Below, in pieces: positions 47,061 through 64,000 of a DNA stretch of 64,000 bases (positions are counted from its first letter, which is position 1; every line of letters begins with the position of its first letter). Under the pieces are notes generated by a model, which did no database searches, was not told where the DNA came from, and saw nothing but the letters and a program-made list of their open reading frames with translations. The position numbers and the translations under genes were made by a program. Source of the stretch: an uncultured Bacteroidota bacterium (GTDB lineage: Bacteria > Bacteroidota > Bacteroidia > UKL13-3); assembly GCA_903901345.1 (NCBI GenBank), contig CAIUQQ010000216.1:3420-67419 (forward strand), read 5' to 3'.

Positions 47061-47134
47061 GGCCCCGTAGCTCAGCTGGATAGAGCAACAGCCTTCTAAG
47101 CTGTGGGCCATTGGTTCGAATCCAATCGGGGTCA
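47061..47134 (+). tRNA. tRNA-Arg (anticodon TCT)
   Basis: Manual cloverleaf: acceptor GGCCCCG/CGGGGTC; D-arm GCTC-AGCTGGATA-GAGC; anticodon arm ACAGC-CTTCTAA-GCTGT; T-arm ATTGG-TTCGAAT-CCAAT; discriminator A. No encoded CCA. Confidence 0.9.
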
Positions 47135-47150
47135 CGATTAAACAACTAAA

Positions 47151-47184
47151 AAGCCTGTAAATCAATAGATTACAGGCTTTTTTC
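47151..47184 (+). terminator. Intrinsic terminator of the tRNA-Arg gene
   Basis: Perfect 10-bp inverted repeat AAGCCTGTAA...TTACAGGCTT followed by TTTTT. Confidence 0.75.
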
Positions 47185-47285
47185 ATAAAGAGGGTAAACA
47201 TAGGGTAAACATTTCGTTTTTTCCTCTCATAACGCTCACTTACTTTAATTTTCACAAGCACATAATTCATCTATGCTTATACTAT
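47170..47285 (+). promoter_or_regulatory. Repeated regulatory module, copy A: terminator 3' half, tandem direct repeat AGGGTAAACAT x2, conserved box CTCACTTACTTTAATTTTC (possible -7 promoter element)
   Basis: Shares roughly 110 nt with the second copy at 51.15 kb. The tandem decamers sit at 47191-47212 and the conserved box at 47236-47254. Confidence 0.4.
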
Positions 47286-47573
47286 GGATAATTTATGTAC
47301 TTACTATAAATACTATTTACTTTTTGATACGAAGTGTTAGCAAGTAATGCAAACGCAACGGATTAGTTAAGGACTTGAGATGGAGATATTTTAGGAGATA
47401 AAACTCAGATATTTACTATGGAGTTTTTTAATATTACATAAATTTCAGAGTAATTTATGTATTTTAGTTCTGCGATATACAAATTTATTGAAAGGTAAAG
47501 TATAGAAATAAAGTTGGTGCATATAGAAGAAGTTTGAAACATAAAGAATTAGCTAAAATTAAAAACATAGATC

Positions 47574-48551
47574 ATGAAACACAATAATTCAGATTATAAA
47601 AAAACATTTTATTACTGGCCTTTTATAGAAAATAATGTAATTGTAGCAACGCTCAAATACCCAAACTCTTTAGTAGATTATATAGAAAATTTGATTTTTG
47701 ATGTTATTGAAAAAAGAAACCTTATTGAAAAAAGAATTGTTTTCCTTGTTGACAATTTATGGACAAAACAGTTATTGCAAAGTTTATTGTTATGTCGTAA
47801 GGTTATAGATAACGATAATAATATTTTAAATACAACTAATCAAATTACTATTGTTGAAATAACAAATGATTTTGATAATGTAATTTATAAATCTATTGGC
47901 GGCAACATTAATGAAATTATTTATGAAGCAGATACATTTATTCTTATTGATTTTAATGTTTTAATGAATGATAGCAATGAACTTCTTGAACGATTAAGAG
48001 TTTATTGGAAAAATAAATTATGGATTGGAGTAGGACTAAATAATGAAAAAGACACTATTAGATTATTAAGTTTTGGCGAAGAATACATAAACTATTTGCC
48101 AGATTCCCCAGAAACGTTTGAAGGATTTGTAAATGAAGATGTATTAAAGGGGATAGAAAATATTTTAGTATCATTAGGTGATAATGAAGACTCTGGTATA
48201 TTTTCTAAACACTTTTATGGTGAGATTTTTACAGAAGAAAATGACTATACTTTAGCAATAGGAACGAGTGATTTGGTTGAGTGTGAATACGAAGAAGAAG
48301 ATGGCGAAAATGATGAAAACTATGGTGATGATGAAAAATCTTTTTGCGTTGCTATTTTAATTACTAAATATAAATTAGAGCTTTCAATAGAATTACAAGA
48401 TTATGATTGGGATGGCACAGTCTATTTGAATTATAAAATTGACTTTGAAAGTGATATTTATGAAGAAGGCGATATTGGAAAGATAGACGATTTGGTTGAA
48501 GAAATTTGCGAACGAATTAATTCTCAGAAAATAAATGTTCGATTATCTTAA
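47574..48551 (+). CDS. Hypothetical acidic protein (325 aa, D/E-rich C-terminal half)
   Basis: Long ORF at about 27% GC with no recognisable family. First gene after copy A of the module. Confidence 0.5.
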   Translation: MKHNNSDYKKTFYYWPFIENNVIVATLKYPNSLVDYIENLIFDVIEKRNLIEKRIVFLVDNLWTKQLLQSLLLCRKVIDNDNNILNTTNQITIVEITNDFDNVIYKSIGGNINEIIYEADTFILIDFNVLMNDSNELLERLRVYWKNKLWIGVGLNNEKDTIRLLSFGEEYINYLPDSPETFEGFVNEDVLKGIENILVSLGDNEDSGIFSKHFYGEIFTEENDYTLAIGTSDLVECEYEEEDGENDENYGDDEKSFCVAILITKYKLELSIELQDYDWDGTVYLNYKIDFESDIYEEGDIGKIDDLVEEICERINSQKINVRLS

Positions 48552-48662
48552 TATTACATAGGATTGAAACATACAGTGATTGAGTCAGTTTGGTGTATTA
48601 TTAAATTTATAAAAACTAAAAAACTAGCGATTTCGGATTATTAATATTTCAATAAAATTAAG

Positions 48663-49220
48663 ATGGGTGAAAAAGAAAAATACTTTGAAGAGCTAAATAT
48701 TAGCTTCGAAAAGTACCTCAAAACAAAAAGTATATATTCCTTCAAGCAAGTCAAAGGCAAAATGAAGGAGGGCGAGAATAAGTATAAATTTATTTTTAGA
48801 GATTACTATTGGTGGCATCCAAAATGGAGTGTGGCAGATTTTGAAAAATCACTTTCCGATGACGTTAAATTGTTAAAGAGTTTGTGGTCAAAATGGCGAA
48901 AAGTGCATAGAAGTTATGAGGATATGGTATTAAGCAATGAATTATATGCTTTGCATTACCAAGTGTCTTTAAATTTAACAAAAAAATGCGAACACAAATT
49001 TAAAAATGGCAAATATTATTTGGTAAAATCCAACAATAGAGTGTACTTGCATTTTGCTGAATTATTTATTGAATCAGAAAAAAAAATAGCCAGTTCAAGG
49101 CCCGAACCCACAGTAAAATCTAAACCCAAGAAATTTGATGATATCAGGGAATATGCCAAACAACTAAAAAGAGAGATTAGACCAAAAAAACGATTTGATG
49201 TCAGGCTACTCGAAGTTTAA
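48663..49220 (+). CDS. Hypothetical basic protein (185 aa)
   Basis: ORF with a Lys/Arg-rich C-terminus and no known motif. Confidence 0.45.
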   Translation: MGEKEKYFEELNISFEKYLKTKSIYSFKQVKGKMKEGENKYKFIFRDYYWWHPKWSVADFEKSLSDDVKLLKSLWSKWRKVHRSYEDMVLSNELYALHYQVSLNLTKKCEHKFKNGKYYLVKSNNRVYLHFAELFIESEKKIASSRPEPTVKSKPKKFDDIREYAKQLKREIRPKKRFDVRLLEV

Positions 49221-49247
49221 TACGATTATATAAATAAGCCAAAGAAA

Positions 49248-49466
49248 ATGGATGAAGTAGTTAAAAACGAGTTATCAAAATTAAATATGTATGAGGTTAT
49301 TTGCGCTGATGCATTAAGTCAATTACATTTAAATAACCCACAACAATTGGTGGACTTTGAAAAAGATAAAATTATATCATTGTTAAAAAGAATGTTTGAT
49401 GCAGAGAGAGAATACTTAATTGATGAATCTGATGATTATTTAGAAATTTATAAAGAAGAAATTTAA
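49248..49466 (+). CDS. Hypothetical small acidic protein (72 aa)
   Basis: Short ORF closely spaced inside the operon. Confidence 0.35.
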   Translation: MDEVVKNELSKLNMYEVICADALSQLHLNNPQQLVDFEKDKIISLLKRMFDAEREYLIDESDDYLEIYKEEI

Positions 49467-49488
49467 TTTAACTTATTCATCCTTACAA

Positions 49489-50454
49489 ATGGACAACATA
49501 AAAAAAATATTAAAGTCAAAATTAAATTGTGAATCTGTAAATTCTGAAATAGTAGAATTTGATAATGATAATGATTTTCTTCCTAAAAGAGGTAAAATAA
49601 AATTTGATTTTGTAATCAAAAACAATAATAAAATTGAGGCATTAGGTTTAAAAGTTCAGGAAACAGACCTTGACAGTTATGTAAAAGGAATTATTGAAAA
49701 AATACCAAATAATTTTGAATACCCCGTCTTTTATATATCATCAATTAATAATAGCGGTTTATTAACCAGGAATTTGTATTCTTCAGAAAAAATAATGAAT
49801 TTATCAAAGAGACCTGAATATGACATTTTTGAAAACCGTGATGTAATTTATTATGACCATTTAGATAAATTAATATTTGATATTAAAGACCTTTGCAAGG
49901 ACTTAATGAATGAAGAAGATTTTGAATTTCGTGAATTAGCAAGAGAAGTTAAAAATCTACAATGGAAATTAAAGGATAGCGAAAAAAAATATATCAACGA
50001 GAATAATAGTTTAAAGTCAGAAAATAACTATCAAAAAGAAAAGTTAGAAAAACTTGAAATAAAGATTAACAAATACATTAAAACTGATAAAACAAAAACT
50101 ATGTTTGCTATTAGTAATTGTTTGTTTATAACAGAACTAAAAGGAGCAATAAAAAAACTAAAGCTCCCGGAAAGTAATGAAATTAAGTCTGATATAAAAA
50201 CTGGTTACGGATATAATGAAAAATATTCAGTTACAAATTTCATTGATAATAATCATTTTGAATTTTATTTAGGTAATATATCAAATAAATTTTATTTAGT
50301 TCTAGAATCTTATACATGGGTTGCTGAATATAGTAGCAATGTACCCACTACTAATTATTATTATTGTTATGATGATATAAACAATCATTTTACTCTAGTT
50401 AATGGAAATGAGGTAGAGGATATTTTAACATGGATTCCGTTGAAGGATTTTTAA
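49489..50454 (+). CDS. Hypothetical coiled-coil protein (321 aa)
   Basis: Central K/E-rich coiled coil. No family recognised. Confidence 0.45.
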   Translation: MDNIKKILKSKLNCESVNSEIVEFDNDNDFLPKRGKIKFDFVIKNNNKIEALGLKVQETDLDSYVKGIIEKIPNNFEYPVFYISSINNSGLLTRNLYSSEKIMNLSKRPEYDIFENRDVIYYDHLDKLIFDIKDLCKDLMNEEDFEFRELAREVKNLQWKLKDSEKKYINENNSLKSENNYQKEKLEKLEIKINKYIKTDKTKTMFAISNCLFITELKGAIKKLKLPESNEIKSDIKTGYGYNEKYSVTNFIDNNHFEFYLGNISNKFYLVLESYTWVAEYSSNVPTTNYYYCYDDINNHFTLVNGNEVEDILTWIPLKDF

Positions 50455-50570
50455 TTTAATGCTCTTATTATTATAACCTGAAGGTCTTAATTTTATTAGA
50501 TTATATAACAAATCTTTTTTCTAAGGAATATTATTTACCTCGCATCTAAAAATATTTTAAAATTTACATT

Positions 50571-51086
50571 TTGAGTGTTAGTGCAAAAGATATTTTTTAC
50601 TGTATCGCAATTACATTTGTGGTTACATATTGTCCTTCTCTCTATGTCCCTATCCATTTACCATTTGAAGTAAATTTAATTAGTGCTTCTATCTCGATTC
50701 TGAAGTCAATTTTGGAAGAATTTATTTTTCGTTTTTTATTATTAGCCATATGTTGTAATTACTTTGGAATGTTGCAAAGTTTAATAGTATCATCATTACT
50801 TTTTTCATATGCCCATTTTGAATTTAATTGGTTTCAAATAAACTATTTTCTTTTCATTTCAAAATTTACAAGTGGTTTATATTATGGATGGGCATATCTA
50901 TCAACCCGTTCAATAATTGTCCCAATAACTATGCACATTTTGTGGAATATTGCAACTATCCCATTTGAAAAGGTTATTGCGACTGAAACTTCGGTTATCG
51001 AAGTTTATGTTAAAATAACAATTTTGATTTTGGTAGTTATTTATTATAAATATCCAGTAAAGAAGCTTTCTTTAATTCATTATTAA
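50571..51086 (+). CDS. CPBP-family (CAAX/Abi-like) intramembrane glutamic endopeptidase, short form
   Basis: EEFIFRFLLL (EExxxR), FSYAHFEFNW (FxxxH) and MHILWN (HxxxN) motifs within 4-5 TM helices. Probable TTG start. Confidence 0.65.
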   Translation: MSVSAKDIFYCIAITFVVTYCPSLYVPIHLPFEVNLISASISILKSILEEFIFRFLLLAICCNYFGMLQSLIVSSLLFSYAHFEFNWFQINYFLFISKFTSGLYYGWAYLSTRSIIVPITMHILWNIATIPFEKVIATETSVIEVYVKITILILVVIYYKYPVKKLSLIHY

Positions 51087-51147
51087 TAATCTTATATTAC
51101 AATAGAATTCAAATACAATATCAAATAAAATTCCTGATTGAAGAACT

Positions 51148-51270
51148 TTACAGGCTTTTTGATTTAATGGGGGGGAACATAGGGGGAACATTTGAATTGT
51201 TCATTACTTTTTACTCACTTACTTTAATTTTCGTTCACACATACCTTATCCATACCTATGGTATGGTTTA
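51148..51270 (+). promoter_or_regulatory. Repeated regulatory module, copy B: degenerate terminator half TTACAGGCTTTTT, tandem direct repeat GGGGGAACAT x2, conserved box CTCACTTACTTTAATTTTC
   Basis: Aligns with copy A. Both half-sites carry the same TA to GG change relative to copy A. Decamers at 51171-51191 and conserved box at 51214-51232. Confidence 0.4.
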
Positions 51271-51480
51271 TCTATATACAAACTACGTTAAAAACTTTCA
51301 AAATTATACAAAACATGGTGATGTGATGCAATCGCATCACTCCTGATTAAAATGCTTTTTACTTGATATACTTTTGTATAGTCAAACCATTTCTATTCGC
51401 TATATGAATGAAGTTTGATGATTTTGGAGACTGACTGCGCAGCAGTTGACAAAATGTAAATCAATCTAAAAATTAAAAAA

Positions 51481-52230
51481 ATGGCTCAACAAAAAGGCAT
51501 TATAAAGCTAAAAGGAAAAATCGGAGATATTTCCTTTTACAAAACACAAGACGGCCATTTGGCTCGTGAAAAAGGAGGAGTAGATGCTTCACGCATCGCT
51601 AACGATCCTGCTTTTATTCGCACCCGTGAAAATGGTGTAGAATTCGGTTCATCTGCTAGTTCAGGCAAATTGCTAAGAAGTTCATTAAGAAGTATGTTAA
51701 TGACTGCTGGCGATAACAGAGTAACGGCTCGATTAACCAAAACAATGACTGATATTAAAAATTTGGATGCAACATCAGTGCGAGGAAAAAGAACTGTGGG
51801 AATTGCTATTGCTTTAGCGCCAGCTAAAGCGTTGTTAAAAGGTTTTAATTTTAATAATAAGGCAATATTAGGCAGCATCTTATTTAAACCTTATGCAGTA
51901 GCAACAGCCACAGGAATCATTACCATTACAGGACTCGTTCCACTTACTGATATTGCTTTTCCGGAAGGTGCAACGCATGTTAGTTTTAAAAGCTCTTGGG
52001 CAAAGGTGGATTTTACAAATAATGTTTCGGATGTTAAATTATCGAATGTTGTTAATTTGCCAATTAATGCGGTATCGGCTAACGTTGTTTTAACTCCAAC
52101 TGCAGCAGCTGTAGGAACAGGAATAAACTTGTTTGTATTGCAACTGGAGTTTTTTCAATTGGTTAATGCTATTCAGTACACCATGAAAAACGGAACATAC
52201 AATGCGTTATGCATTGTTGAGGTAAGCTAA
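51481..52230 (+). CDS. Hypothetical protein (249 aa, Ala/Thr/Val-rich, beta-rich)
   Basis: First gene after copy B of the module. Composition resembles a phage-structural protein, but no family was recognised. Confidence 0.5.
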   Translation: MAQQKGIIKLKGKIGDISFYKTQDGHLAREKGGVDASRIANDPAFIRTRENGVEFGSSASSGKLLRSSLRSMLMTAGDNRVTARLTKTMTDIKNLDATSVRGKRTVGIAIALAPAKALLKGFNFNNKAILGSILFKPYAVATATGIITITGLVPLTDIAFPEGATHVSFKSSWAKVDFTNNVSDVKLSNVVNLPINAVSANVVLTPTAAAVGTGINLFVLQLEFFQLVNAIQYTMKNGTYNALCIVEVS

Positions 52231-52234
52231 ACAG

Positions 52235-52651
52235 ATGGAATTATTACTCATTAGAACATATGATGTTGTAGGGATCAATGGCACGCTTTATAATTGTGAA
52301 AAAAGTATCTGCCATACGATTGAATTACCCTGGAAAGAAAATCAAAAAATGATTTCCTGTATTCCAGAAGGTCGTTATGAAATTGTAAAAAGATATAATG
52401 CCAAATTTAAATGGCATTTCATACTTATGAACGTGCCAAATAGGTCCTTTATTTTAATTCATCCGGCTAATGATGCGCTTAAAGAATTGAAAGGGTGCAT
52501 TGCACCAGTTTTAGTTTTAGCAGCAGCAGGAAAAGGATATGAATCAAAAAAAGCATTAAAGAGTTTAATTTCTATTATTTACCCTTTACTGGATCAAAAA
52601 GAAAAAATTTATCTAACTATTAAATCAAAACCAAACAATGAGACTCATTGA
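52235..52651 (+). CDS. Small conserved Cys/His protein with a YkuD/L,D-transpeptidase-like motif (possibly the DUF5675 family); putative cell-wall-active enzyme
   Basis: ILIHPANDALKELKGCIAPV resembles the H...(S/T)xGC(I/V) catalytic signature of L,D-transpeptidase-fold enzymes. Additional conserved Cys in CEKSICHTIELPW and SCIPEGRY. Confidence 0.4.
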   Translation: MELLLIRTYDVVGINGTLYNCEKSICHTIELPWKENQKMISCIPEGRYEIVKRYNAKFKWHFILMNVPNRSFILIHPANDALKELKGCIAPVLVLAAAGKGYESKKALKSLISIIYPLLDQKEKIYLTIKSKPNNETH

Positions 52652-52883
52652 CAGATTAAAAGCACCAACACCTAAGTTTTTTAAAGTATTAAGAAATATT
52701 GGTTTAGGATTAGCCGCTGCAGGCGGTGTAATAGTTGCATCGCCAATTGCCATCCCTACAATTATTATAACCATAGGTGGTTATTTAATTGTAGCAGGAA
52801 GTGTAGCAACTGCAGTAAGCCAAATAGTAACAACTACTGAAGGCGATGCTTCGACAAGCACTGCAAACCAAAAAAATAACTGA
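52638..52883 (+). CDS. Small two-TM membrane protein (holin-like topology, 81 aa)
   Basis: Two hydrophobic helices (IGLGLAAAGGVIVASPIAI / IIITIGGYLIVAGSVATAV) and a polar tail. Overlaps the upstream gene by 14 nt. Confidence 0.45.
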   Translation: MRLIDRLKAPTPKFFKVLRNIGLGLAAAGGVIVASPIAIPTIIITIGGYLIVAGSVATAVSQIVTTTEGDASTSTANQKNN

Positions 52884-52910
52884 GTATTAATTATTAAAAT
52901 CATTATTAAA

Positions 52911-53249
52911 ATGACTGAAGAAAAAAATCAAATCGAAAAAACTCAAACTATTGTTGAGTTACAAGTTTTGCCATGTGCTAACGAAGTGGCACCAGCAAAA
53001 CAAAATGTTGAGGTATTAAACCACGAAAATCAAGATGATCCACCATGTGGTAAAATCATCTTAACAGTTACTTGTAACGGATCAAAATTAACTAAAGCAG
53101 ATTCTGGACTCGTTGAAGAATTTCAGGAAGAAGTTTGGGTGACAGTAAAAACAACAAAAGCGGATGCAGGTATTGTACCAAATATTGATTTAAGTGTTCA
53201 TGAAAGATGCACAACAAAAATGACAAAGGCTGATTCCGGTATTGCTTAA
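52911..53249 (+). CDS. Hypothetical acidic protein with three TKADSG-type repeats and four Cys (112 aa)
   Basis: Repeats LTKADSGLV / TTKADAGIV / MTKADSGIA. No signal peptide. Confidence 0.45.
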   Translation: MTEEKNQIEKTQTIVELQVLPCANEVAPAKQNVEVLNHENQDDPPCGKIILTVTCNGSKLTKADSGLVEEFQEEVWVTVKTTKADAGIVPNIDLSVHERCTTKMTKADSGIA

Positions 53250-53259
53250 AAACTAAATT

Positions 53260-53445
53260 ATGTCAACACATCATAACATAGAAAGCGGAACTATCATGGG
53301 CACTGTTTCAGGAACAGTCTTAACTGTATTAGTGAACATAGGTTCATCGGATATTATTAAAACAGTTGTCCTTGCTGTACTTGGTGCAGTGGTTAGTTTT
53401 GGAGTTTCTTTATTGTTAAAGTGGTTACTCCGAAAGTTTAAGTAA
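53260..53445 (+). CDS. Small two-TM membrane protein with a basic C-terminus (holin/antiholin-like, 61 aa)
   Basis: Hydrophobic helices VSGTVLTVLVNIG and VVLAVLGAVVSFGVSLLL, followed by KWLLRKFK. Confidence 0.4.
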   Translation: MSTHHNIESGTIMGTVSGTVLTVLVNIGSSDIIKTVVLAVLGAVVSFGVSLLLKWLLRKFK

Positions 53446-53462
53446 TTTTAAATTAATCTTTA

Positions 53463-53496
53463 AAGCCTTGCACAAAATGTGCAAGGCTTTTTTTTG
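53463..53496 (+). terminator. Strong intrinsic terminator ending the 51.5-53.4 kb operon
   Basis: 11-bp perfect inverted repeat AAGCCTTGCAC-aaaat-GTGCAAGGCTT followed by TTTTTTT. Confidence 0.85.
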
Positions 53497-53497
53497 A

Positions 53498-53920
53498 TTA
53501 CTTTTTTAAATATTTATAAAATAAAGCTTTGCGCAATTGCATTAAATAATCTAATTGTTGATTTAGATTAGTTTGCAAATTTTCAATTTGTGCTAATGTA
53601 TTTTGAACATCAGAAAATGAACGATTGCCGGTATTAACTGAGTTTAAAGTTTCTTCAATTACATCAATAACATCACCTAAGCGAATATATTCGATAACTG
53701 AGCCTTTTAGATGTTTACGAAATAAACGAAGCTCCCATAAGCCTAATAATAAGAAATAGTAAAACTCTTTTTCTTCTTTATTATCTGCCAAAAACACAAA
53801 TGAATTGCATACATAGTGATTAAATGGTTTACCAGAATTTAGACCTTTGTTTAAAATAAAGAAATGTTGTTGTTGATACATTTTACCTGATTTGTGTGTT
53901 TTGATTTTTGATTTTAACAT
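53498..53920 (-). CDS. Hypothetical protein with a C-terminal coiled coil (140 aa)
   Basis: ORF convergent with the terminator. A weak resemblance to the coiled-coil spacer of HsdS-like specificity subunits (AQIENLQTNLNQQLDYLMQLRKALF) is speculative. Confidence 0.35.
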   Translation of the reverse strand: MLKSKIKTHKSGKMYQQQHFFILNKGLNSGKPFNHYVCNSFVFLADNKEEKEFYYFLLLGLWELRLFRKHLKGSVIEYIRLGDVIDVIEETLNSVNTGNRSFSDVQNTLAQIENLQTNLNQQLDYLMQLRKALFYKYLKK

Positions 53921-54289
53921 GATGATTTTTTTAAAGGGTTTGTATCCCTTTTTTCATCTTGTGTTTTGAACCTGTTTACTACTAATTTGAAAACAAAGAA
54001 AAAACCCAAAAAAACGAGCTAAATAAAAGCCCGAAAAAAATGAAAAAAGAAAGCATTTTGAAAAGGCTGAACACTGAGGTTGCCAAGATTTTTGACAAAA
54101 AAAATACTACCTGAATGCGGCAGTATTAATAAACCTTTTACCTTAAATAATGCCGCATGAAGTGTGGAGATTATTTTTGCAAAACCCGAAGGGCTTGACC
54201 TTGCAATCCGAAAGTGGAAAGACTTAAATTGCGCCTCTTTTTTTATTTTGGAATAATTTACCTGTTACTGCATTCTATTTTTAAAATAA

Positions 54290-54830
54290 ACATCAATTGA
54301 AATGTAGAGGTAAAAGCGCCCGCGGCGTGGGAAGGAAAACGGTTGCAAAAAATGAAGTGAGGTACGAACAAAATGATTTGCAATCCGTTGTGCGGCGAGC
54401 CACCTGCGAGTGGAGAGAGGGTGTGCAGCATGGGAGCTTGAGGTACGAAAGCGGATGCAAACTATGTTGCAAGTGTGGCAAAAAGCCCCCTACATTTCCC
54501 CCAGAGGGGGAAGGCAAAAAGGCATGCCACACGATAGCAACACAAGTGCATTTTTGTTGCAATGATTTTATTGCGCTACAAAACAAAAATGCACGAAGCC
54601 CGAGCGACTATGCAGGCGAGCTGAAAAGTTGGTAGCCGGTGGACTGAAAGTGGCTGAGATGAATGAAGTGCAATGGCACCCAGTGGAAGTAGTGAAACGG
54701 ATGTAACGGGTGAATAATGGAGCGAAATGAATGAAGTGGCTTGAAGGACAGGATAGGCTACCGTGACGAAAGCACTGTGCAACGAGCAAAAAATGTGACA
54801 AACTAAAAACCCGAAGGGCAAAATAGCTTA
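54290..54830. ncRNA. Candidate large structured non-coding RNA or other non-coding element: GC-rich (>50% GC) island with stable hairpins and internal direct repeats; strand undetermined
   Basis: GC content jumps sharply against a roughly 30% background. Both strands show stop-free ORFs translating to low-complexity nonsense. 13-bp perfect stem GTGCATTTTTGTT...AACAAAAATGCAC (54546-54596). CCCCCAGAGGGGG hairpin (54489-54501). Many GNRA-like GAAA loops. Direct repeats TGAGGTACGAA x2 and AATGAATGAAGTG x2. Flanked by AAACCCGAAGGGC at 54182 and 54808. Confidence 0.3.
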
Positions 54831-55222
54831 TGCTAAAAGCCTTGAAAAGACTTAGTTAAAGCATGTGCTATTTTGGTTTGGCGCAATTTGTTGCTTGCAC
54901 CTGCTGAGGAACACCACTTTACCTTTTTCTTATTGAAATAGACGACTCAAACTGCAATATTAATTATAGTATTAAATGATGCACTTTATTGAATTGTACT
55001 AATTTCAGTTTCAAGTATTTTCACTTGAACTCGCAATTTTTTTTACTGTTTCTTAGTACTGCTTCGTTTGTAAGTTTATCTCCATTGCTAGTTTAAAGAA
55101 TAACTGCTAAAAAAATAAGACTATGCGTTAAAAAAAAGGGTAGGCAAGAATTTTAATTGAATGTGCATGCTAAAGTAAACTATTAAAAAAAATTAGTTTA
55201 AAAGATTTTTCATTTTAATATA

Positions 55223-55756: not shown

Positions 55757-55772
55757 TTTATTAGTAATTTAA

Positions 55773-58154
55773 TTATACATTAATACCAAAGCTACTAAGT
55801 TTTCTTAATGATTCAAATCCTTTTTCTATTGATAGCTCTTTGATAATTTCATTTTTATTTAGTGAATTACGAATTGATTTAAGATTTGATAATTCACCGT
55901 ACCCAAAAATTTTAGTTTTTTCACCTATAGAGATAATATTATCCCAGTCTTTTTTAGATATTAATTTAATTCTATCATAAATAACTTTTATATCAACCCC
56001 TTCATTTTCTTTCAATTTTGAAAGTGCTTTAATTTCTTCGATTAGAGAAATATTCTCAGTAATAAATTTTAATCCTTTTTTACCTACAGAGATATCTCGT
56101 AATGATAAATTTTTATTTTCTCTTAATTTATCTGTCAGTTCGGTTAGCGGTGTATTTTCTATTTCTACTGAGGGATTATCAACAATGTATTTAATTAATC
56201 CATCCCAGAATTTAATACCAAGTTTTTTTATTTCACTAATTACAAATAAAGTATCTTCAATATTTTCACCCTCTTTTTCTTTTTCTATTTCTCTTATCTC
56301 TACTATCTCCTTAGTAATAAAATAATCACTAAGATTTGAGAAATCTAAATTATATTTTACTGATTTCAATAATTTCCAACTAGATTCTCTTTTAGCGTAT
56401 TCTGATAATAATGTATTATTGGAAGATTTAAGGTGATTATATACAAAAACAATTAATTTTTTTAAAACAAGCTCTAAAGCATTCGGAACTTTTTGTTCTT
56501 CATAAATTTTCCATAAATCTAATTTGTTATCAGTAAGTTCGTGGAAATAAGACAAGGTATAAGCCACCGTAAATGATTTTAAATTAGTGTCGCCAATTGC
56601 ATCAACATTTTTTCTACCAAATAATTTATCAACTGCTTTAAATAATATTGCATTCGCTATTAATTTTTTATAAAAATTTTCGCCAGGCATTCTGTTTTTT
56701 TCACTTAACTCTTTTATTTTTTTAAGGTATTGAATGAAATTCTTTTGGGCTCCTTGTGAAACATAATGAGGCTCTAAATCCCAAATATTAATGAATTTTG
56801 CAATATCTGATTTTACAAATTTTTGATTAGTTGGATTTTGTTCCTTGAACTTTCTTTGTTGAGCTGGTGTTGTAAGTTTATTTAAAGATTCTCTATACTG
56901 ACCATTTATGCGCTCGAAATACCACAATGTAGATAAATTTCTATTGTCTGGGTCAACAACATATTTTTTTCTAGATAACGATTCAATTTGAACAAAATAG
57001 GGGTTATTAGATGTTAAATCTAATTCTGAAACTTTGTTTTGGCTATTTGCAAATCTTGCTATATTGGGAACTTCAATATTCTTTTGTTCAATATCTTTAA
57101 TTACTGTCAATTTCATTTGAACAAATACTTTACTTAAATCAGCGTCTTTAAATTTCTTTTGGGTATGAAATAACGAAGCTGTTGTTTGACCACCATTAAC
57201 GATTTGAAAATCATTCATTTTGGTTAGATAAAGCTGGTTATCAATAATTTTTGTTTCTACATTTTCAGCAGTTGCAGTAATGCCATTATTATAAGGTAAA
57301 AACATTTGCGGTTTTTCTCTTATTGTATCTCTAATTCCTTTATTGTATTTCCCTGTTTGACCTAAAAATGCACGAACATTGCTTTCTAATAATTCATTAG
57401 AAAATTCTTTGTACAATTTGGCTAAAACATCACCAGGAATAATTGCTAAATAACATTCATATAATTCATTTAAATCAGGCACTTTTAAACACTGAACACC
57501 TTGTGCATTAGAGGGAAGTAAGTCCTTAAATTCAATTTCAATAGGTTCTCTGTTACTTGATGATTCGCTTAATTTATAAAATCTTGGAATATCCCAAACA
57601 TGAACAAAAATATCTAAATCATCGAATCCTTTTATGGATGTTTTTTCCAAATCATGATTTGAATTGCCATTTATTAAAAAATAAATATTTATCCTTTCAA
57701 AGTTTGCTTTTTGCTTGAAGATTATTTTCAAAAGTTCGTTTAACTCTGCTTGTGCTGGATCGATATAATCGATATGGCCTTTCAATGCAGCATTCAAAAA
57801 TTTCTTTATTTGATTAATACATTTATTAAAATCATCTTTAGGTATATTAAAATCATAACTAGAAGAATTAAAGTGAGTAATAAATAAGTCAAGTGTTTCG
57901 AAATAAACCTTATTATCATCTTTAAATTCATCCTTAAGACAATATCCATTTATTTTCCAATCTATTCTACCTTGTGAATCCGGATGAACAAACGATAAAA
58001 CTCTTGCTCCTTCTGATTTTCCAATACCATCTAATATTTCGATACAATACTCAGTAAATTTATCTTCAAAACTTACGCCTTCTCCATCTGAATAAACTAA
58101 TGCTGCAACATCAGATTTTAAAGCTTCTAAATAATTATTTAATCCTCTTTCCAT
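55773..58154 (-). CDS. AIPR-family (abortive-infection phage-resistance-like) protein, 793 aa
   Basis: FLGQTGKYNKGIRDTI...LPYNNGITATAE matches my recollection of the AIPR core. Last gene of a five-gene overlapped operon that starts with dcm. Start overlaps the stop of the upstream gene at 58154. Confidence 0.55.
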   Translation of the reverse strand: MERGLNNYLEALKSDVAALVYSDGEGVSFEDKFTEYCIEILDGIGKSEGARVLSFVHPDSQGRIDWKINGYCLKDEFKDDNKVYFETLDLFITHFNSSSYDFNIPKDDFNKCINQIKKFLNAALKGHIDYIDPAQAELNELLKIIFKQKANFERINIYFLINGNSNHDLEKTSIKGFDDLDIFVHVWDIPRFYKLSESSSNREPIEIEFKDLLPSNAQGVQCLKVPDLNELYECYLAIIPGDVLAKLYKEFSNELLESNVRAFLGQTGKYNKGIRDTIREKPQMFLPYNNGITATAENVETKIIDNQLYLTKMNDFQIVNGGQTTASLFHTQKKFKDADLSKVFVQMKLTVIKDIEQKNIEVPNIARFANSQNKVSELDLTSNNPYFVQIESLSRKKYVVDPDNRNLSTLWYFERINGQYRESLNKLTTPAQQRKFKEQNPTNQKFVKSDIAKFINIWDLEPHYVSQGAQKNFIQYLKKIKELSEKNRMPGENFYKKLIANAILFKAVDKLFGRKNVDAIGDTNLKSFTVAYTLSYFHELTDNKLDLWKIYEEQKVPNALELVLKKLIVFVYNHLKSSNNTLLSEYAKRESSWKLLKSVKYNLDFSNLSDYFITKEIVEIREIEKEKEGENIEDTLFVISEIKKLGIKFWDGLIKYIVDNPSVEIENTPLTELTDKLRENKNLSLRDISVGKKGLKFITENISLIEEIKALSKLKENEGVDIKVIYDRIKLISKKDWDNIISIGEKTKIFGYGELSNLKSIRNSLNKNEIIKELSIEKGFESLRKLSSFGINV

Positions 58155-59125
58155 TATTTAATTAATTCAATAATTGATTCAATATTAAGACGAAAAATTT
58201 CAATAGACGAAAGTTCTATATTATAAGTTGTATTAAAAATACCAATTGGTAAATCACCGGAAACTAATTTTGGGAAGTCATTAGTAACTGAATATTTATA
58301 TGAACATTTTAGTGCGTATTGGCTATTATAATTTTCAATATCTTCATTTATATAACCAACCAATATCAATTTTTCATTGAATAATTTCAAAGCGTTATGA
58401 TTATTGGCTATTTTATTACGAATTTGATCAACAACTGAATTGAGTGAAAAGCCTTTGTCTTTAACTTGTTCCGTTACGTAAAGTACAAGGAATAGATGTG
58501 TTAAATTTTGTGCGTCTAATTGCCTTTCGCTACTTACTTTAATTTTTGGAGTTTTTGAAGATGTGAATTTCACTTCAATACCTTTAGAGCCAAATAAGAA
58601 ATCTTTATCGTCAAAATCTGGTCCAGTCCAACTTTCTAGTAAATTATCTATTGAATAATTCTCATCTAATAATGAATTGAATAATAATAATTCTCCAATT
58701 AGCCCTTTTTGTTTTTCAATAGTTAATCCCTGAAAATTTATTTTATCAAATAATTTTTTCCATTTTAAAACAACATTTGCCGTTTCAATTAACGCTTCGT
58801 TTTCTATAACACATTTTGAAATTTCTTCAAGAATATTCTCAATGAATAAACTAAAAATATCCTTTAATTGATTATCTAAAAGATAAATATTTAATTCTTT
58901 TGAATTATCAAAATCAAAAACCTGAATTAATAATCCTTTAAATTTGAATTTTTTAATCTCTGGGATTTTTGCGTTTACAGAAGTTTCGAGTATGAATAAG
59001 TGATTACCTGTTATGTGATTAGTTGCCGCATAACACTTAAATTGAGGTATTTCTTCAATCCTCGTTTTAATAATAATTTCATCTGTTGGCGACTGATTAG
59101 CCCAAATTGATTTAATGTCAATCAT
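58154..59125 (-). CDS. PD-(D/E)xK-family nuclease-like protein (323 aa)
   Basis: KGLIGELLLFNSLL ... PDFDDKDFLF ... GIEVKFTSS gives the E...D...E-V-K spacing of the restriction-endonuclease fold. Confidence 0.6.
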   Translation of the reverse strand: MIDIKSIWANQSPTDEIIIKTRIEEIPQFKCYAATNHITGNHLFILETSVNAKIPEIKKFKFKGLLIQVFDFDNSKELNIYLLDNQLKDIFSLFIENILEEISKCVIENEALIETANVVLKWKKLFDKINFQGLTIEKQKGLIGELLLFNSLLDENYSIDNLLESWTGPDFDDKDFLFGSKGIEVKFTSSKTPKIKVSSERQLDAQNLTHLFLVLYVTEQVKDKGFSLNSVVDQIRNKIANNHNALKLFNEKLILVGYINEDIENYNSQYALKCSYKYSVTNDFPKLVSGDLPIGIFNTTYNIELSSIEIFRLNIESIIELIK

Positions 59126-59128
59126 GAT

Positions 59129-61939
59129 TTATTCATTTTCAATATTATCATCGTCAACCATCGGTTCATTTTCAAAATCATCTTTTGTAGTCGCCATGTA
59201 AGATACTTTTACCTCATGATCAATTTTCGGAAAATGTAGACTATAACCAATAATGGGTACTCCGAAATCAACATCTGAAGTTCCACGGTCATCCAAAGCA
59301 TATAATAACAATAATCCCTTTTTTTCTCTAGCCCTTCTTTCTTTGATACTACCATCTCCGTTCTCTAATAAATCTACTTGTCTATCTATTGTATCGTCAA
59401 TCTGATTTTTAGTGATTTTATATAATTCGTGGTTCTCAGTTTGATTTCTTACGCTAGATGAAAGTTCAATTAAGTCAGACCCTAATTCGATTGAATATTT
59501 CTTTGTAGGCATTTGTTTTCTTGAATCTTTATTTGGCGTTTTTCCTTGTATCTGATCATATAAATAAACGTCTGAATCAGTATTAGATACAATACAGATA
59601 TTCCATTCTTTTATATTGTTGTTTAATTTTTGTTGTTTTATATATTCAGCAATAACTTCATTATTAATTGATGGGATATTAATTTTGTAATTATTAATAA
59701 ACTCATTTAAATAATCAACATTAACATCTTTATATAAAACATATCTAATTTTTTTTCTTTTTTCTATTAATTCAGTTGGTTTGCCTAGCTTCTTGAATAA
59801 GGTTGAAAATAAATTGAAATTATGCAATATGGACTTCTTATCTTTTAAAAGAAGATATGTTTGCGGGTTTGAACCTGAAAAAGAAATGGTAATGTTTTGA
59901 GCCCAATATAATTTAGCAACACTTGTTACCGTCATTAAGCCATGATGATTTCGGATTTTTAGTCTAAAATCTTTGGGTCTTTGATGGGTTACAGTCATTT
60001 CATCAAAGTCATTTCTCATTTCTTCTGTTGCCATTGTTATATGGTTAAACCATTCAAAAATCTGTTCAGTTGTGTAAAGTCTACATAAATCTACATATCC
60101 TGGTCTGTAGCCAAACCATCTTCCCATTTGCATTAAGGAATCATACATTTTAGTAGTCCTTAAATAATAACTAACTGAAAGGCCTTCTAAAGTAATACCT
60201 CTTGCAAGTCTGCCGCCACCAACTGCTATAACTGATAACCCATTTTCATATCTGCTATAGTCAATCTCTTCTATATTATGATATTCTAAATTTGTTGTTG
60301 ACCTTGTTCCATGAACTGCCCTTACATCAATTTTAGAGGATGCATTTTTTAATTCCAATCTAACATCTTCCCAATGATGATGCTTTATTCTTACATCTGA
60401 ATAGTCTAAGTTTTCTAGAGTATTTATCGTAGTTGGTTTAAAATCATGTTCAAATAATTCTTTCAATTCATGTAAAAATTTAGAATCATCACTTTCAATA
60501 TTATTTTTAAACACTCTTATTTTTTCATTTACTAATAAAGCCACTTTGTCAATCCATTTCACATATAAAGCCACATGAACCAACATTGAGTTGTGTTTTT
60601 TATCATGACCTCTTAATCTTCTGATTGTACAAGTCAGAATAAATGATTTTATTGCTAACTCTAGGCTTTCTGGAAGAAAGTCAGGCAAATCGTCTTTATT
60701 ATTTTTATTTATTGTTGCAAAAAAAGGAGGGTCATAGTCATCAATTTTTCTATAGACATCAAGCGGTTCATTAATTAAATTAGTTATTGGATCCTCTAAA
60801 CCAAAAACCTTTGCTGCCCCAAAGTAATTTTTTGCTGCTTTAATGTTTATAATAAAATCCTTGGGAAATAAATCATCCCCAATTAAATATTCTTTTCCTT
60901 TAACAACAGTTTTTAATTCATCATTATATTCCTGCGAAATAAATAAGTTAGCATAAGGAGTTGCTGTATATCCAATAAAAGTATTTTGGTCAAAAACATT
61001 TAATAATGTTCTAATTAATTTATTTATTGTCTTTACTTCATTTATATCATTTGAAGCATTAACAGAAGCCGCATCAGCTTCATCATCTATTACTAAAACT
61101 GGAACATCAAATAATTTTGGTTGACCATCTATGAATCTAATATTTGAATCTTTTGAAAACCAATCTATTAAATTTTCAAGTATACTTTTATTCTTTTTAA
61201 TTACAAATACTACAGGGTTTTTACCTATAGGAATTTTTGCAGTCTTCGGACTAAAATCACCTTCGTCTCCTCTAATATAGAAGGAAGATGTTAATGGGTA
61301 TATGTCAGTATTTACTTTGTATTTACCAACACCCACTATATTACCTTGTCTTTTAAGAATGAAATCAGAACTACTAATCCCTGTAAATCCTTCATCAATT
61401 CTTTCTTGAGTCTGTCTTCTTAAAGAACTTATTGTACCTGCTATTACAATAATAACTTTATATCCAGCATCTGTCGCTTTATTTATTAATCCCACATAAT
61501 TTGAAGTTTTACCAGATTGAACATGCCCAACAACCATTCCTCTTCTATCCCATGAGTCTGAATTTTTTGGATTAACACATTTGTCTAAAATTCTGTCAGT
61601 AAAATCATCTAAATCATTAACCGGAAAAGAAGGGTCTTTTTCAGCCATATAGGCCTTATACCTTTGCCATAATTCCCAATTTATATTCGCTTTATTGTCC
61701 TTTACCCAAGGTTCAATATCCTCAGATAACATTGTTATAGAGCCTTTACCTATGCTGAAATCTGCCATTAACATCTCAAACAATTCATCTTTATCTATCG
61801 GTTGAGAAGGGTCAATATTTATTACCGATACCTTTTCGATAATTTGTTTTATAATTTCTGGTGTTATTTCTCCTTTTGTTTTTTCGTGATTTAATAAAGT
61901 ATGTGCAATAGCTCTCGCTGAGTGTTTTATATCGTTCAT
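59129..61939 (-). CDS. Z1-domain protein with an N-terminal superfamily-II helicase-like P-loop ATPase (936 aa)
   Basis: Walker A GHVQSGKTSN and Walker B/DEAD-like LVIDDEADAASV. Large C-terminal region typical of Z1 proteins that accompany Dcm methylases. 4-nt overlaps with both neighbouring genes. Confidence 0.7.
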   Translation of the reverse strand: MNDIKHSARAIAHTLLNHEKTKGEITPEIIKQIIEKVSVINIDPSQPIDKDELFEMLMADFSIGKGSITMLSEDIEPWVKDNKANINWELWQRYKAYMAEKDPSFPVNDLDDFTDRILDKCVNPKNSDSWDRRGMVVGHVQSGKTSNYVGLINKATDAGYKVIIVIAGTISSLRRQTQERIDEGFTGISSSDFILKRQGNIVGVGKYKVNTDIYPLTSSFYIRGDEGDFSPKTAKIPIGKNPVVFVIKKNKSILENLIDWFSKDSNIRFIDGQPKLFDVPVLVIDDEADAASVNASNDINEVKTINKLIRTLLNVFDQNTFIGYTATPYANLFISQEYNDELKTVVKGKEYLIGDDLFPKDFIINIKAAKNYFGAAKVFGLEDPITNLINEPLDVYRKIDDYDPPFFATINKNNKDDLPDFLPESLELAIKSFILTCTIRRLRGHDKKHNSMLVHVALYVKWIDKVALLVNEKIRVFKNNIESDDSKFLHELKELFEHDFKPTTINTLENLDYSDVRIKHHHWEDVRLELKNASSKIDVRAVHGTRSTTNLEYHNIEEIDYSRYENGLSVIAVGGGRLARGITLEGLSVSYYLRTTKMYDSLMQMGRWFGYRPGYVDLCRLYTTEQIFEWFNHITMATEEMRNDFDEMTVTHQRPKDFRLKIRNHHGLMTVTSVAKLYWAQNITISFSGSNPQTYLLLKDKKSILHNFNLFSTLFKKLGKPTELIEKRKKIRYVLYKDVNVDYLNEFINNYKINIPSINNEVIAEYIKQQKLNNNIKEWNICIVSNTDSDVYLYDQIQGKTPNKDSRKQMPTKKYSIELGSDLIELSSSVRNQTENHELYKITKNQIDDTIDRQVDLLENGDGSIKERRAREKKGLLLLYALDDRGTSDVDFGVPIIGYSLHFPKIDHEVKVSYMATTKDDFENEPMVDDDNIENE

Positions 61940-63405
61940 TTTAAATAATCGTTTATTATTGGAAAAAGATTAAAAGGTGTTGCACTCATGATTTGCTGTC
62001 TGCCCAATGCTTCTGGAATTCCTTGTAGTTTATAAATATCAAATATTTCTATTGCTAGTTTTATCAAGTCATCGTTTGGTATTTCCGTAATTTTCTCTAG
62101 TTCATGAAAAGACGGATCCTCATTTTGATTGTGTAAAATTAACTCAATCGGAATATTTTCTTCTAGTAATTTTATGGCTTTAGAAAATAATTTATTTGTT
62201 TTTTCTACCTCTAATAATTGTTTAATTATTGGATGTTTTTTGTTTATTTTATATTTCTTTATACCTTCTCTGTTAGTTTCATCTTTCCATAAAGCTTCAA
62301 ATGAAGCGTTTATATATTCATCAGAAATTGTTTTTTGACCTCTCCAATTATATATTTTAGCAGACTTCATAACAGCTATTCTCGCTATTCTAGTTAATTC
62401 TTTTCTAATTTCTATCGGTGGAGTTGCCGTAGATTTTTTTATATCCAAGTTCCAATCAAAATCATTTGCATTTGGAAAATTAATGGATATTCTTGCCAAT
62501 TTTGAATACTCTCTTTTCTTTTCGATACCTAACCAATCACCAGATACTAATAATCTATCGCCTCTATAAACATAAAATCCTTGTTGTTGATACCATCCTA
62601 ATGGACCTCCAGATTTTTCATAATCTTCGACTTTTATTTTTGACATATGGGGTAATATGAAATAAGTAACTTCAACATTATTATTAAGTATTTCAGTTTG
62701 TCCCATTTCGGGCTTAGGATTTAAGTTTAATAAAAAAGGATTCCACGCTTCGATTTCATAAGTGTTTGAATATATTTTTACTTTTTTGCTTTCAATGAAT
62801 TTGTGAAATACAAGACTTAAATGTGCTTTTACGGAAATCAATTCCTGATAAAATGCATTTTTAACTGCTTCGTTATCTTCATTAGAGTTCCCAACAATTC
62901 GATCTAATATTTCCCAAAAAATTAAAGTTCCGCTTTCAAATTTATCAAGTTTGTTCAATAGGGAATCATCTGAAATATAATCTAGTAATGTCCATTCTTC
63001 TTCTTGATTAATAAAGTCTATATCCCAACACCTCTTTATGATTTTGTAACCTTTCTTTTTAGTAACAACAGTTAATCTTTTACATTGCGAAAATGAAGCA
63101 GTTTTAAGCCCCATTCCAAATCTCCCTAAATCTTTTTCATCTCGTATATCTTCAGGATCTTTGCTTCCAGGAGTCATCGCAATAACTAATTCAGCTAAGT
63201 TCATCCCTTTTCCATTGTCAAGAATAGTTATGAAGGACTCCTTTCCTTTCCAAGAATAATCAAGAGATATCTCAGTAGCATTTGCCGAAATACTATTATC
63301 AACTATGTCTGCAATAGCCGTAGATAAATTATATCCAAAACTCCTATAAGAATTTATAGTTGATTTAGGATTTGGTTTGGCATTTTCAGCTTTAAATTTT
63401 TGCAT
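61936..63405 (-). CDS. GHKL-superfamily ATPase (HATPase_c, MORC-like), 489 aa
   Basis: N-box AIADIVDNSISANAT, G1 box ILDNGKGMN, G2 box GRFGMGLKTASF, the Bergerat-fold motifs in order. Confidence 0.8.
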   Translation of the reverse strand: MQKFKAENAKPNPKSTINSYRSFGYNLSTAIADIVDNSISANATEISLDYSWKGKESFITILDNGKGMNLAELVIAMTPGSKDPEDIRDEKDLGRFGMGLKTASFSQCKRLTVVTKKKGYKIIKRCWDIDFINQEEEWTLLDYISDDSLLNKLDKFESGTLIFWEILDRIVGNSNEDNEAVKNAFYQELISVKAHLSLVFHKFIESKKVKIYSNTYEIEAWNPFLLNLNPKPEMGQTEILNNNVEVTYFILPHMSKIKVEDYEKSGGPLGWYQQQGFYVYRGDRLLVSGDWLGIEKKREYSKLARISINFPNANDFDWNLDIKKSTATPPIEIRKELTRIARIAVMKSAKIYNWRGQKTISDEYINASFEALWKDETNREGIKKYKINKKHPIIKQLLEVEKTNKLFSKAIKLLEENIPIELILHNQNEDPSFHELEKITEIPNDDLIKLAIEIFDIYKLQGIPEALGRQQIMSATPFNLFPIINDYLK

Positions 63406-64000
63406 TATAGCATTTCCAATATTTTTTTAGCAATACCATTTGCCATCAATGGTGGCACGGCATTACCAATTTGTTTAAAAGCAGCTGTTCTACCACCTTC
63501 AAAATAAAAATCATCAGGAAAAGATTGAATTCGAGCTGCTTCTCTGACTGTAATAGATCGATTTTGTTTTTTATCTGGGTGAATGTAGTAATGACCATCC
63601 ATTGCTATATGGGCGACCACTGTGTGACAACAGCCACCTCCATCTACAACTTGAAATCGATTTGTGAAAGAAGTTATGTTTTTATGTTTAATTAAATGTT
63701 TAGGCAGTGTAGCATAATCTAATCTTTTCCCTCTATTCCATTCTTCAATTGCAATTCTATATATTTCTAAATCATTTTGATTATTTGGACGCGCTATATG
63801 TTGAGTTGTAAAATCTATACAATTTCTAATAGCTGTTTTTTTAAGATACTCTGTAGTTTCTTTTTTATAATTAACTAAACCTAAGCTACCTTGGCCATTT
63901 TGTAAAGATGGTAAATCGGAAAATAAGTCATTTAAAATTTTATATTTATTTTCCTTTGTAGCAAAAGTGGGGTATTCAAATTTTAAATTTTCTTTCCATC
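63405..64000 (-). CDS. dcm: DNA (cytosine-5)-methyltransferase, C-terminal part. 5' end lies beyond the window edge: the frame is open to nt 64000.
   Basis: C-terminal motifs IX/X ...ITVREAARIQSFPDDFYF.G....AFKQIGNAVPPLMA.... My manual back-translation of 63621-64000 shows no stop. The ORF-track entry 63405..63620 is only the segment after an internal GTG. Confidence 0.85.
   Translation of the reverse strand, partial: WKENLKFEYPTFATKENKYKILNDLFSDLPSLQNGQGSLGLVNYKKETTEYLKKTAIRNCIDFTTQHIARPNNQNDLEIYRIAIEEWNRGKRLDYATLPKHLIKHKNITSFTNRFQVVDGGGCCHTVVAHIAMDGHYYIHPDKKQNRSITVREAARIQSFPDDFYFEGGRTAAFKQIGNAVPPLMANGIAKKILEML

Follow-up and report, generated by a model that had tools for sequence, protein, structure and literature searches.

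The DNA analysed here is a stretch of 64,000 nucleotides (the window) from contig CAIUQQ010000216.1 of an uncultured Bacteroidota bacterium, and our subject is the region that begins at tRNA-Arg(TCT), the only tRNA gene found in the window by both ARAGORN and Rfam, and that runs past the window edge (Table 1). To the left of this tRNA lie genes for DHFR, a PolB-like 3'-5' exonuclease, GpsA and a 652-amino-acid (aa) GT2 glycosyltransferase, and farther upstream genes for TonB-dependent receptors and for nucleases with type IX secretion system (T9SS) tails. This agrees with an earlier reading made from the letters alone (the sequence-only reading), which had placed core or exported-enzyme genes on this side. 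The same reading had described the 17 kb downstream as lacking recognisable families or being defence-related, and the open reading frames (ORFs) there answer to that description in Pfam and PADLOC. They comprise an operon of four orphan genes, a CPBP/Rce1-like membrane protease gene, an operon beginning with a gene that we call p249, a convergent DUF6943 gene, and, beyond a GC-rich non-coding element, a TPR gene, the genes of an Mza defence system and a truncated C5 cytosine methylase gene.

Table 1. Features from tRNA-Arg(TCT) to the far end of the extended locus. Positions past 64000 are virtual window coordinates, with position x of contig L002 equal to 73238 - x.
Feature	Position	Strand	Remarks
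tRNA-Arg(TCT)	47061-47135	+	proposed integration target; ARAGORN and Rfam
attL core	47119-47135	+	last 17 nt of tRNA-Arg
Left copy of 55-bp direct repeat	47119-47173	+	tRNA 3' end and terminator T0
Element-borne terminator hairpin T0	47136-47186	+	read from the sequence; directly 3' of the restored tRNA
Left arm X1	47187-47360	+	two tandem AGGGTAAACA motifs, 47191-47200 and 47202-47211
Orphan operon of four ORFs	47574-50454	+	325, 185, 72 and 321 aa; no family
CPBP/Rce1-like membrane protease	50571-51086	+	PF02517, E 8.7e-17
Second left-arm copy X2	51147-51480	+	motif scan and alignment
Operon p249, DUF5675, p81, p112, p61	51481-53445	+	only DUF5675 recognisable
DUF6943 protein	53498-53920	-	PF22105, E 8.7e-40; convergent with p249 operon
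GC-rich non-coding element	54164-54924	+	part A 54164-54250; part B ~54300-54924
TPR protein	55223-55756	-	TPR_1 and TPR_16 matches; final gene downstream of Mza operon
MzaE-MzaD-MzaC-MzaB	55773-63405	-	Pfam and PADLOC
C5 cytosine methylase (Dcm), 3' part	63405-64000	-	PF00145
Complete Dcm gene	to virtual 64634	-	409 aa; whole in L001 and L002
386-aa protein	virtual 64885-66045	-
128-aa protein	virtual 66089-66475	-
HTH_17 protein	virtual 66559-66933	-	Xis/AlpA-like
312-aa protein	virtual 67120-68058	-
PIF1-like helicase	virtual 68216-70150	-
324-aa protein	virtual 70251-71225	-
Tyrosine recombinase (integrase)	virtual 71794-73002	-	402 aa
Right copy of 55-bp repeat	virtual 73183-73237		L002:55-1

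The locus was extended by an exact-protein look-up with the GHKL protein, which led to contigs from other metagenome samples. Two of them match the window at 100% identity, L001 over 12,065 nt and L002 over 4,154 nt, and can therefore be taken as the same genome and used to follow the locus for 9.2 kb past the window edge. The gene for the integrase, a 402-aa tyrosine recombinase, runs from start to end between 7.8 and 9.0 kb past that edge, at the end of the island far from the tRNA. The protein carries Arm-DNA-bind_5 (PF17293), Phage_int_SAM_5 (PF13102) and Phage_integrase (PF00589) domains; its frame is intact, with the box I arginine, the HxxR motif and the C-terminal tyrosine in place, and it has distant Protein Data Bank (PDB) matches to XerA, XerC-like and integron integrases (E ~1e-8). 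The sequence-only reading had found no integrase within the window and had let the island continue past nt 64000, where an integrase was to be sought; all of this holds. Its length of ~17 kb does not, since the extended island measures ~26 kb. As to the other backbone proteins, the 386-aa protein shows weak similarity (25% identity) to bifunctional DNA primase/helicase or AAA ATPase genes, as annotated on plasmid records of the Bacteroides group. The 324-, 312-, 128- and 386-aa proteins have no match in PHROGs, NCBIfam or PADLOC, and PDB sequence searches with the 386- and 312-aa proteins came back empty.

The sequence-only reading had also proposed to look for a direct repeat of the tRNA 3' end, and one is present ~180 nt past the integrase. 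Of its 55 bp, 17 are the end of the tRNA and 38 belong to the terminator hairpin behind it. The two copies are identical at 54 of 55 bases; the right copy, taken from the opposite strand of the first 55 bases of L002, reads AATCCAATCGGGGTCACGATTAATCAACTAAAAAGCCTGTAAATCAATAGATTAC. From repeat start to repeat start the distance is 26,064 bp (73183 - 47119), which sets the island at ~26.06 kb, from 47119 to virtual 73183. The window and L002 each contain the core, AATCCAATCGGGGTCAC, a single time, and with three mismatches allowed neither sequence holds a further 17-nt copy. The end of L002 was also considered as the attP site of an excised circle and rejected, as its terminator is one base off the T0 of the same sample.

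The terminator T0 and the arm X1 that follow the tRNA recur elsewhere. L095 and L108 have the same T0 after their tRNA, and in L089 it stands behind the right attachment (attR) core of another element. Conserved copies of X follow the tRNA in L093, L095 and L108, and one follows attR in L089. The AGGGTAAACA doublet within X1 is found only at 47191-47211 and beside the integrase, between its start codon and attR, and it recurs upstream of related integrases in L003 and L004. Because the integrase has an arm-binding domain, these doublets are plausible candidates for arm-type integrase sites.

A look-up with the exact GpsA protein retrieved conspecific strains whose left flanks are 98-99% identical, and with the window these display four alleles at the tRNA-Arg site (L100, L095, the window, and L093/L094). 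L100 (GCA_947374115.1) is 99.1% identical over 43014-47142 and then continues with a different terminator, GATTAAAAAAACCTCCTTAACTAAGGAGGTTTTTT, and a DUF1801 gene; on this comparison it is the empty site, with the native terminator and a junction exactly at the core. The empty tRNA-Arg site that the sequence-only reading had hoped to find in relatives is thus available at 99.1% flank identity, and in place of one shared gene order, strains 98-99% identical differ from each other at this tRNA.

In L095 (GCA_947381375.1), the tRNA is followed by T0, ~150 nt of X, and then a 39-aa ORF and the hipA/hipB genes (HipA of 339 aa, Couple_hipA of 107 aa and HTH of 68 aa). The gene list of a 57.5-kb contig that also carries the identical integrase gives, beyond the integrase, 39 aa, HipA_C of 339 aa, Couple_hipA of 107 aa and HTH of 68 aa, followed by T9SS-tailed phosphatases. 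The four gene lengths common to both imply that L095 is the state without the 26-kb element, and that the element separates the tRNA from an older T0-X-hipBA remnant. The DNA past attR is then the left end of the previous occupant, which is why the repeat runs on into the terminator.

The fourth allele, in L093 and L094, is another island variant (left flank of L093 98.2% identical to the window). There the tRNA is followed by another terminator, by X, and by a 73-83% identical p249 operon without DUF5675, and then by an IS3 transposase, DUF6943, a homologue of the GC-rich element, Fic and SocA; L093 is without the block 47360-51458, which includes the orphan operon. Farther out, a glycosyltransferase scan of genome contigs (matches at or below 80% identity) showed that the glycosyltransferase gene is kept beside tRNA-Arg in six relatives, at 59-80% identity, with no island protein within 10 kb of the pair in any of them. 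These six were not accepted as clean empty sites by themselves, as the genes beyond the tRNA differ among them. The labels of the relatives found go no further than uncultured Bacteroidota or Bacteroidia, and the placement in Flavobacteriia given by the sequence-only reading was not confirmed.

The tRNA itself records the exchange. All occupied strains have G at position 70, where the empty site L100 and the L003 attR core have A, a pattern indicating that the element supplies a new tRNA 3' end and that the crossover lies within AATCCAATCGGG. In accordance with this, the occupied strains carry C-G as the acceptor-stem pair 3:70 (window 47063/47131); the distant relative L005 has T-A there, and L006 has T-G. 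At the empty site of the conspecific L100, C faces A as a mismatch, and the pattern fits a history in which the island would supply G70 and L100 would have lost an island by excision.

Taken together, the window region very probably represents the tRNA-proximal 17 kb of a ~26.06-kb integrative island that its own tyrosine recombinase inserted into tRNA-Arg(TCT) at the 3' end. Islands of this type, integrase-driven, tRNA-targeting and carrying defence genes, are ordinary. In the proposed mechanism, the integrase would have recombined an attP site (arm / AATCCAATCGGG... / T0-X) with the T-loop and acceptor end of the tRNA, crossing over within AATCCAATCGGG. The element would thereby have replaced the tRNA 3' end and supplied the terminator, with the original 3' end displaced to attR. 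It would have landed between the tRNA and the older T0-X-hipBA remnant, so that the locus grew by tandem accretion. The island can probably excise with the help of the HTH_17 protein and replicate via the primase/helicase-like gene, and its selective payload would be anti-phage defence, namely Mza and possibly the PIF1-like helicase pair.

Relatives of the integrase were found at tRNA-Arg ends with other flanks and other cargo, at identities of 76-99%. In L003, a 99%-identical integrase lies beside a tRNA-Arg end, after which come another terminator and a DUF1801 gene; the L003 flank aligned loosely with that of L100 in a multiple alignment, and BLAST found only the 22-nt tRNA end in common with the relative L005. 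One 76%-identical integrase protein occurs unchanged in at least four different flanks, two of which (DUF1801, bestrophin, FadL) partly match the genes of L005, an 80%-identity relative in which bestrophin and FadL lie at an unoccupied tRNA-Arg. These relatives speak to the idea that the site is a static defence hotspot, at which DNA accumulated by homologous recombination and the integrase and repeat are relics. Such a hotspot would account for site content that differs greatly between near-identical strains, with the X sequences as possible recombination anchors, and no circular form was observed. The intact integrase frame with its catalytic motifs, the clean empty site with its junction exactly at the core, the near-identical integrase at a tRNA-Arg end in the different flank of L003, and the one protein that recurs unchanged in at least four flanks all argue the other way, and we consider a static hotspot quite unlikely.

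The backbone conserved with these integrases consists of the integrase, a protein of ~290-312 aa, HTH_17, a 128-aa protein and a protein of ~386-400 aa. The cargo varies: an MmeI-type restriction-modification system, an SMC-like ATPase and GmrSD in L004, a PLD-SNF2 protein and an MmeI-type restriction-modification system in L090, and a TonB receptor and a CDF transporter in L085. In L089, the T0 and X that follow the attR of a 76%-identical integrase are nearly identical to window 47136-47300; judged from this order of parts, L089 is another tandem array, and L124 is arranged likewise.

The island is also a mosaic. A second left-arm copy, X2, precedes the p249 operon. The 3' half of T0 is retained in it, as is a GGGGGAACA doublet (51171-51179 and 51182-51190); it has no core, aligns with the spacers between the tRNA and p249 in L093, L108 and L116, and contains the p249 upstream region. 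Its presence implies that the block from 47.36 to 51.1 kb, with the orphan operon and the CPBP gene, either remains as the stump of a newer tandem element or was inserted with duplication of the arm. We therefore have to weigh a reading in which the 26 kb are a decayed tandem array of at least two related islands, with T0, X1, the orphan operon and CPBP as the newer stump, and in which only the part from X2 to the integrase, or nothing, is mobile. Besides the half T0 and missing core of X2, this reading draws on L093 and L108, in which X directly precedes p249 and the 47.36-51.46 kb block is missing, on the tandem arrangements in L089, L124 and the hipBA remnant, and on assembly breaks near 50.4 kb: contigs of at least three independent assemblies end or start at ~50350-50460, inside the 321-aa ORF. 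However, the doublet on the integrase side is exactly that of X1 and not the GGGGGAACA of X2, so that the outer repeats remain a matched pair, and the only two core copies are the outer ones, so that any excision would take the whole 26 kb. We regard the decayed array as a serious possibility, rated slightly below an even chance. In the proposed history of the integrative island, it is after insertion that the island would have become mosaic, with X2 as the relic.

Several further points weigh against an integrative island of 26 kb. The right repeat copy is cut by the end of contig L002; the repeat extends 38 nt past the tRNA, longer than a simple core, and needs the tandem or remnant explanation given above; and the attR-to-hipBA junction is drawn from gene order and gene lengths alone. 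No excised circle or attP junction was seen in the metagenome assemblies, and no relaxase, conjugation or packaging genes were recognised in the ORFs scanned (with Pfam and, for the unannotated ones, NCBIfam and PHROGs). Since X2 has no core, parts of two elements may be joined in the present unit, and the breaks near 50.35-50.45 kb and at the tRNA suggest strain heterogeneity or a change of coverage within the island.

Moreover, all sequences used are metagenome assemblies and many contigs end at the tRNA or inside the island, as would be expected if the contiguity were an artefact of a chimeric contig joined at repeats. We hold such an artefact to be highly improbable: independent samples yielded contigs with 100% identity to the window over 37352-47106, 47087-50353, 47157-49009, 51936-64000 and 59847-64000, L091 spans the junction between tRNA and island, and one further contig should reach back to ~50379.

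Base composition adds little by itself. The mean GC of the island is 0.292 versus 0.310 upstream, as the sequence-only reading had held in calling GC lower than in the flanking core, but the difference is not uniform: the blocks 47136-51400, 51401-54950, 54951-59125 and 59126-64000 have GC contents of 0.265, 0.355, 0.261 and 0.298, respectively, so that the two blocks of ~0.26 fall below all upstream 4-kb windows and the 0.355 block lies above all of them. Measured against the upstream background, tetranucleotide distance peaks over the Mza genes, at z = 6.6. Composition alone would not prove foreign origin.

The predicted defence cargo is led by the Mza genes, for which PADLOC gave E values of 1.6e-94 (MzaB), 5.3e-154 (MzaC), 7.5e-24 (MzaD) and 4.4e-80 (MzaE). 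The four genes are co-oriented, with overlapping or abutting frames, and stand in canonical order with the cytosine methylase directly upstream. Mza is a rare five-gene defence system that is exchanged between mobile elements (PMC11551731). The present copy differs in two respects: the TPR gene follows MzaE, and the methylase scores best with a DrmMII-type model (3.6e-179) and not with MzaA, no MzaA model being among the 25 matches listed. The PIF1-like helicase and the 324-aa protein (L002:2013-5022, virtual 68216-71225) lie between the integrase and the rest of the backbone. This pair is not in the related backbones of L004 and L090, and the helicase matches the PADLOC candidate systems PDC-S68 and PDC-M16A; on these matches, the pair may be a second defence cargo.

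The orphan ORFs scanned gave no significant match in Pfam or PADLOC, and the 325- and 321-aa proteins none in PHROGs or NCBIfam either. Together with the CPBP protease (47574-51086) the four orphan proteins could form a so far uncharacterised cassette for defence or toxin immunity. No contigs but those of the same strain were found to hold an exact copy of the 325-aa protein.

The p249 operon and the convergent DUF6943 gene form a module with a far wider distribution. There are 3801 homologues of p249, nearly all of exactly 249 aa and none annotated, and 727 homologues of the DUF6943 protein, of which the best 120 are at least 76% identical. In a comparison set of 17 loci (16 JGI metagenome loci and L093), the order p249, (DUF5675), p81, p112, p61 and convergent DUF6943 was found in 15; the DUF5675 gene is optional, being missing from most module copies. 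Wherever a tRNA is in view, which is the case in five loci, the module adjoins the tRNA 3' end, at tRNA-Arg in L093 and L108 and at tRNA-Glu in L103, L104 and L118. Defence or toxin genes follow the module in several loci (a prokaryotic Argonaute with McrBC in L118, a GTPase/GAP1/RloB set in L119, AbiEii in L105 and GHKL in L104), and other cargo in others, such as a heavy-metal efflux protein in L109. The module is not universal in the integrase family: in L004, L090 and L124, the 10 kb next to the integrase on its element side hold no called gene for p249 or DUF6943, and L124 seems to be without it altogether.

We note that L122 (GCA_023251875.1 JAHEXY010000014.1:48140-68889) holds two p249/DUF6943 modules head to head, with an IS110 transposase beside them and no tRNA between. 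One of the two is followed by HipA_2, HTH_17, RteC and a mercury-resistance operon. We also note that p112 (52911-53249) contains three copies of the motif K-(M/T)-T-K-A-D-(S/A)-G-(I/L).

The proteins of the module gave few leads. No match to p249, p112 or DUF6943 was found in PHROGs, NCBIfam or PADLOC, and a PDB sequence search with the DUF6943 profile was empty. The AlphaFold model of p249 (predicted local distance difference test score 74.5) has a disordered basic N-terminus and a C-terminal beta-sandwich. It has no significant Foldseek match in the PDB or among viral models, and structure prediction for p249 and DUF6943 gave no functional lead. DUF5675, on the other hand, matches phrog_1501 and comes up in a preprint about lysins derived from phages, and p81 and p61 are small hydrophobic proteins. 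One could accordingly ask whether the locus is a defective prophage or a satellite of the phage-inducible chromosomal island (PICI) type, with the p249 operon as a lysis or morphogenesis remnant comprising the lysin-like DUF5675 and small membrane proteins; the integrase, the AlpA-like HTH_17 protein and the primase/helicase-like gene do resemble satellite backbones. Yet no capsid, terminase, portal or tail gene was matched in Pfam or PHROGs, p249 and DUF6943 have no relatives in 2.9 million viral contigs, the p249 model resembles no viral or PDB fold significantly, and most copies of the module do without DUF5675. A phage origin of this sort appears improbable to us.

Upstream of the DUF6943 gene lies the GC-rich non-coding element, whose GC reaches 0.50 against 0.31 for the genome, within ~1.3 kb devoid of credible ORFs. 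A search of 4227 Rfam families gave no match at the gathering threshold and nothing meaningful at E <= 1 within 54160-54925, and single-sequence folding gave similar z-scores for both strands. By nhmmer, part A, the first 90-100 nt, was found upstream of DUF6943 in 13 of the 17 loci, and part B in eight further loci, three of them cut by contig ends; part B cannot be present in L118 and L119, because only ~290 nt separate DUF6943 from the next gene there. In L093, L104 and L109, an AT-rich segment of ~0.5-1 kb splits part A from part B, with an ORF inside it in L093.

An alignment of eight sequences displays invariant stretches interrupted by hairpins of differing length and sequence. RNAalifold gave 114 pairs in 18 helices, of which 13 pairs have compensatory double changes, as compared with 4.6 +/- 1.6 in shuffles (0 of 500 reach 13) and 0-2 in shifted controls; the eight sequences are related, and the pairs were counted on the same alignment that gave the structure. 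Many conserved G-U pairs favour the + strand. The segment 54164-54924 is thus a candidate for a new structured RNA of 0.6-0.75 kb, without an Rfam family. A 24-mer of the element had no match in the viral contigs.

GOLLD, ROOL and OLE are large structured non-coding RNAs in GC-rich intergenic regions of AT-rich genomes. The present element is like them in its length of several hundred nucleotides, its high GC in an AT-rich genome, its many conserved helices with variable hairpins, and its location on a mobile element; it differs from them in its link to DUF6943 and p249 and in having no Rfam match. We tentatively suggest, as a possibility that we would not yet call probable, that the p249 operon, DUF6943 and the GC-rich element constitute the tRNA-proximal core conserved across a large, undescribed family of integrative elements in Bacteroidota, which ferries defence and other cargo, and that the 0.6-0.75-kb element would be a new class of large structured RNA with a role in the life cycle of the integrative element itself (regulation, transfer or packaging, for instance) and would not be cargo.

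Among known kinds, the island is comparable to the mobilizable transposons NBU1 and NBU2 and to elements with CTnDOT-type integrases. The likeness lies in the Bacteroidota-typical trio of integrase domains, insertion at a tRNA 3' end with that end repeated at the far junction, HTH_17 excisionase-like and primase-like genes, and central cargo. Unlike these elements, the island has an integrase at the tRNA-distal end, its own terminator at the left end, and phage-defence rather than antibiotic-resistance cargo, and in part of the family the left end carries the p249-DUF6943 module. It is also without recognised transfer functions: no relaxase or Mob protein and no oriT were recognised, though a divergent relaxase is possible, and no type IV secretion or Tra genes were among the ORFs scanned across the 26 kb.

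Pipolins (PMC11551731) are likewise integrative, flanked by direct repeats, often at a tRNA, and composed of a conserved core with exchanged defence systems, including Mza, whereas the present island has no piPolB, a different and mostly unannotated backbone, and a host in the phylum Bacteroidota. PICIs and other phage satellites share with it an integrase, an AlpA-like regulator, a replication gene, small size and defence cargo; the island differs in that it has neither packaging nor capsid-remodelling genes, phage homologues are missing and nothing points to a helper phage.

Upstream of the island, the TonB-dependent receptor region 36239-40210 is only 77% identical to L093/L094, as compared with 98% over the adjoining 40217-47360, and L093/L094 hold an extra T9SS gene with a PLD domain within the matching region. 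This region is a second polymorphic or recombined spot.

In sum, the locus provides a clean example of a textbook island, with four alleles, in an uncultured Bacteroidota lineage, and it places the rare Mza system on a mobile carrier. The element family is recognisable by its conserved ends (terminator, arm-site doublet and integrase arm), between which the cargo is swapped, and these ends could serve for the systematic finding of defence islands in Bacteroidota. The p249-DUF6943 module is very widespread in Bacteroidota and wholly unannotated. The element family, this module and the RNA candidate could each open a testable question on how such elements move or are controlled.

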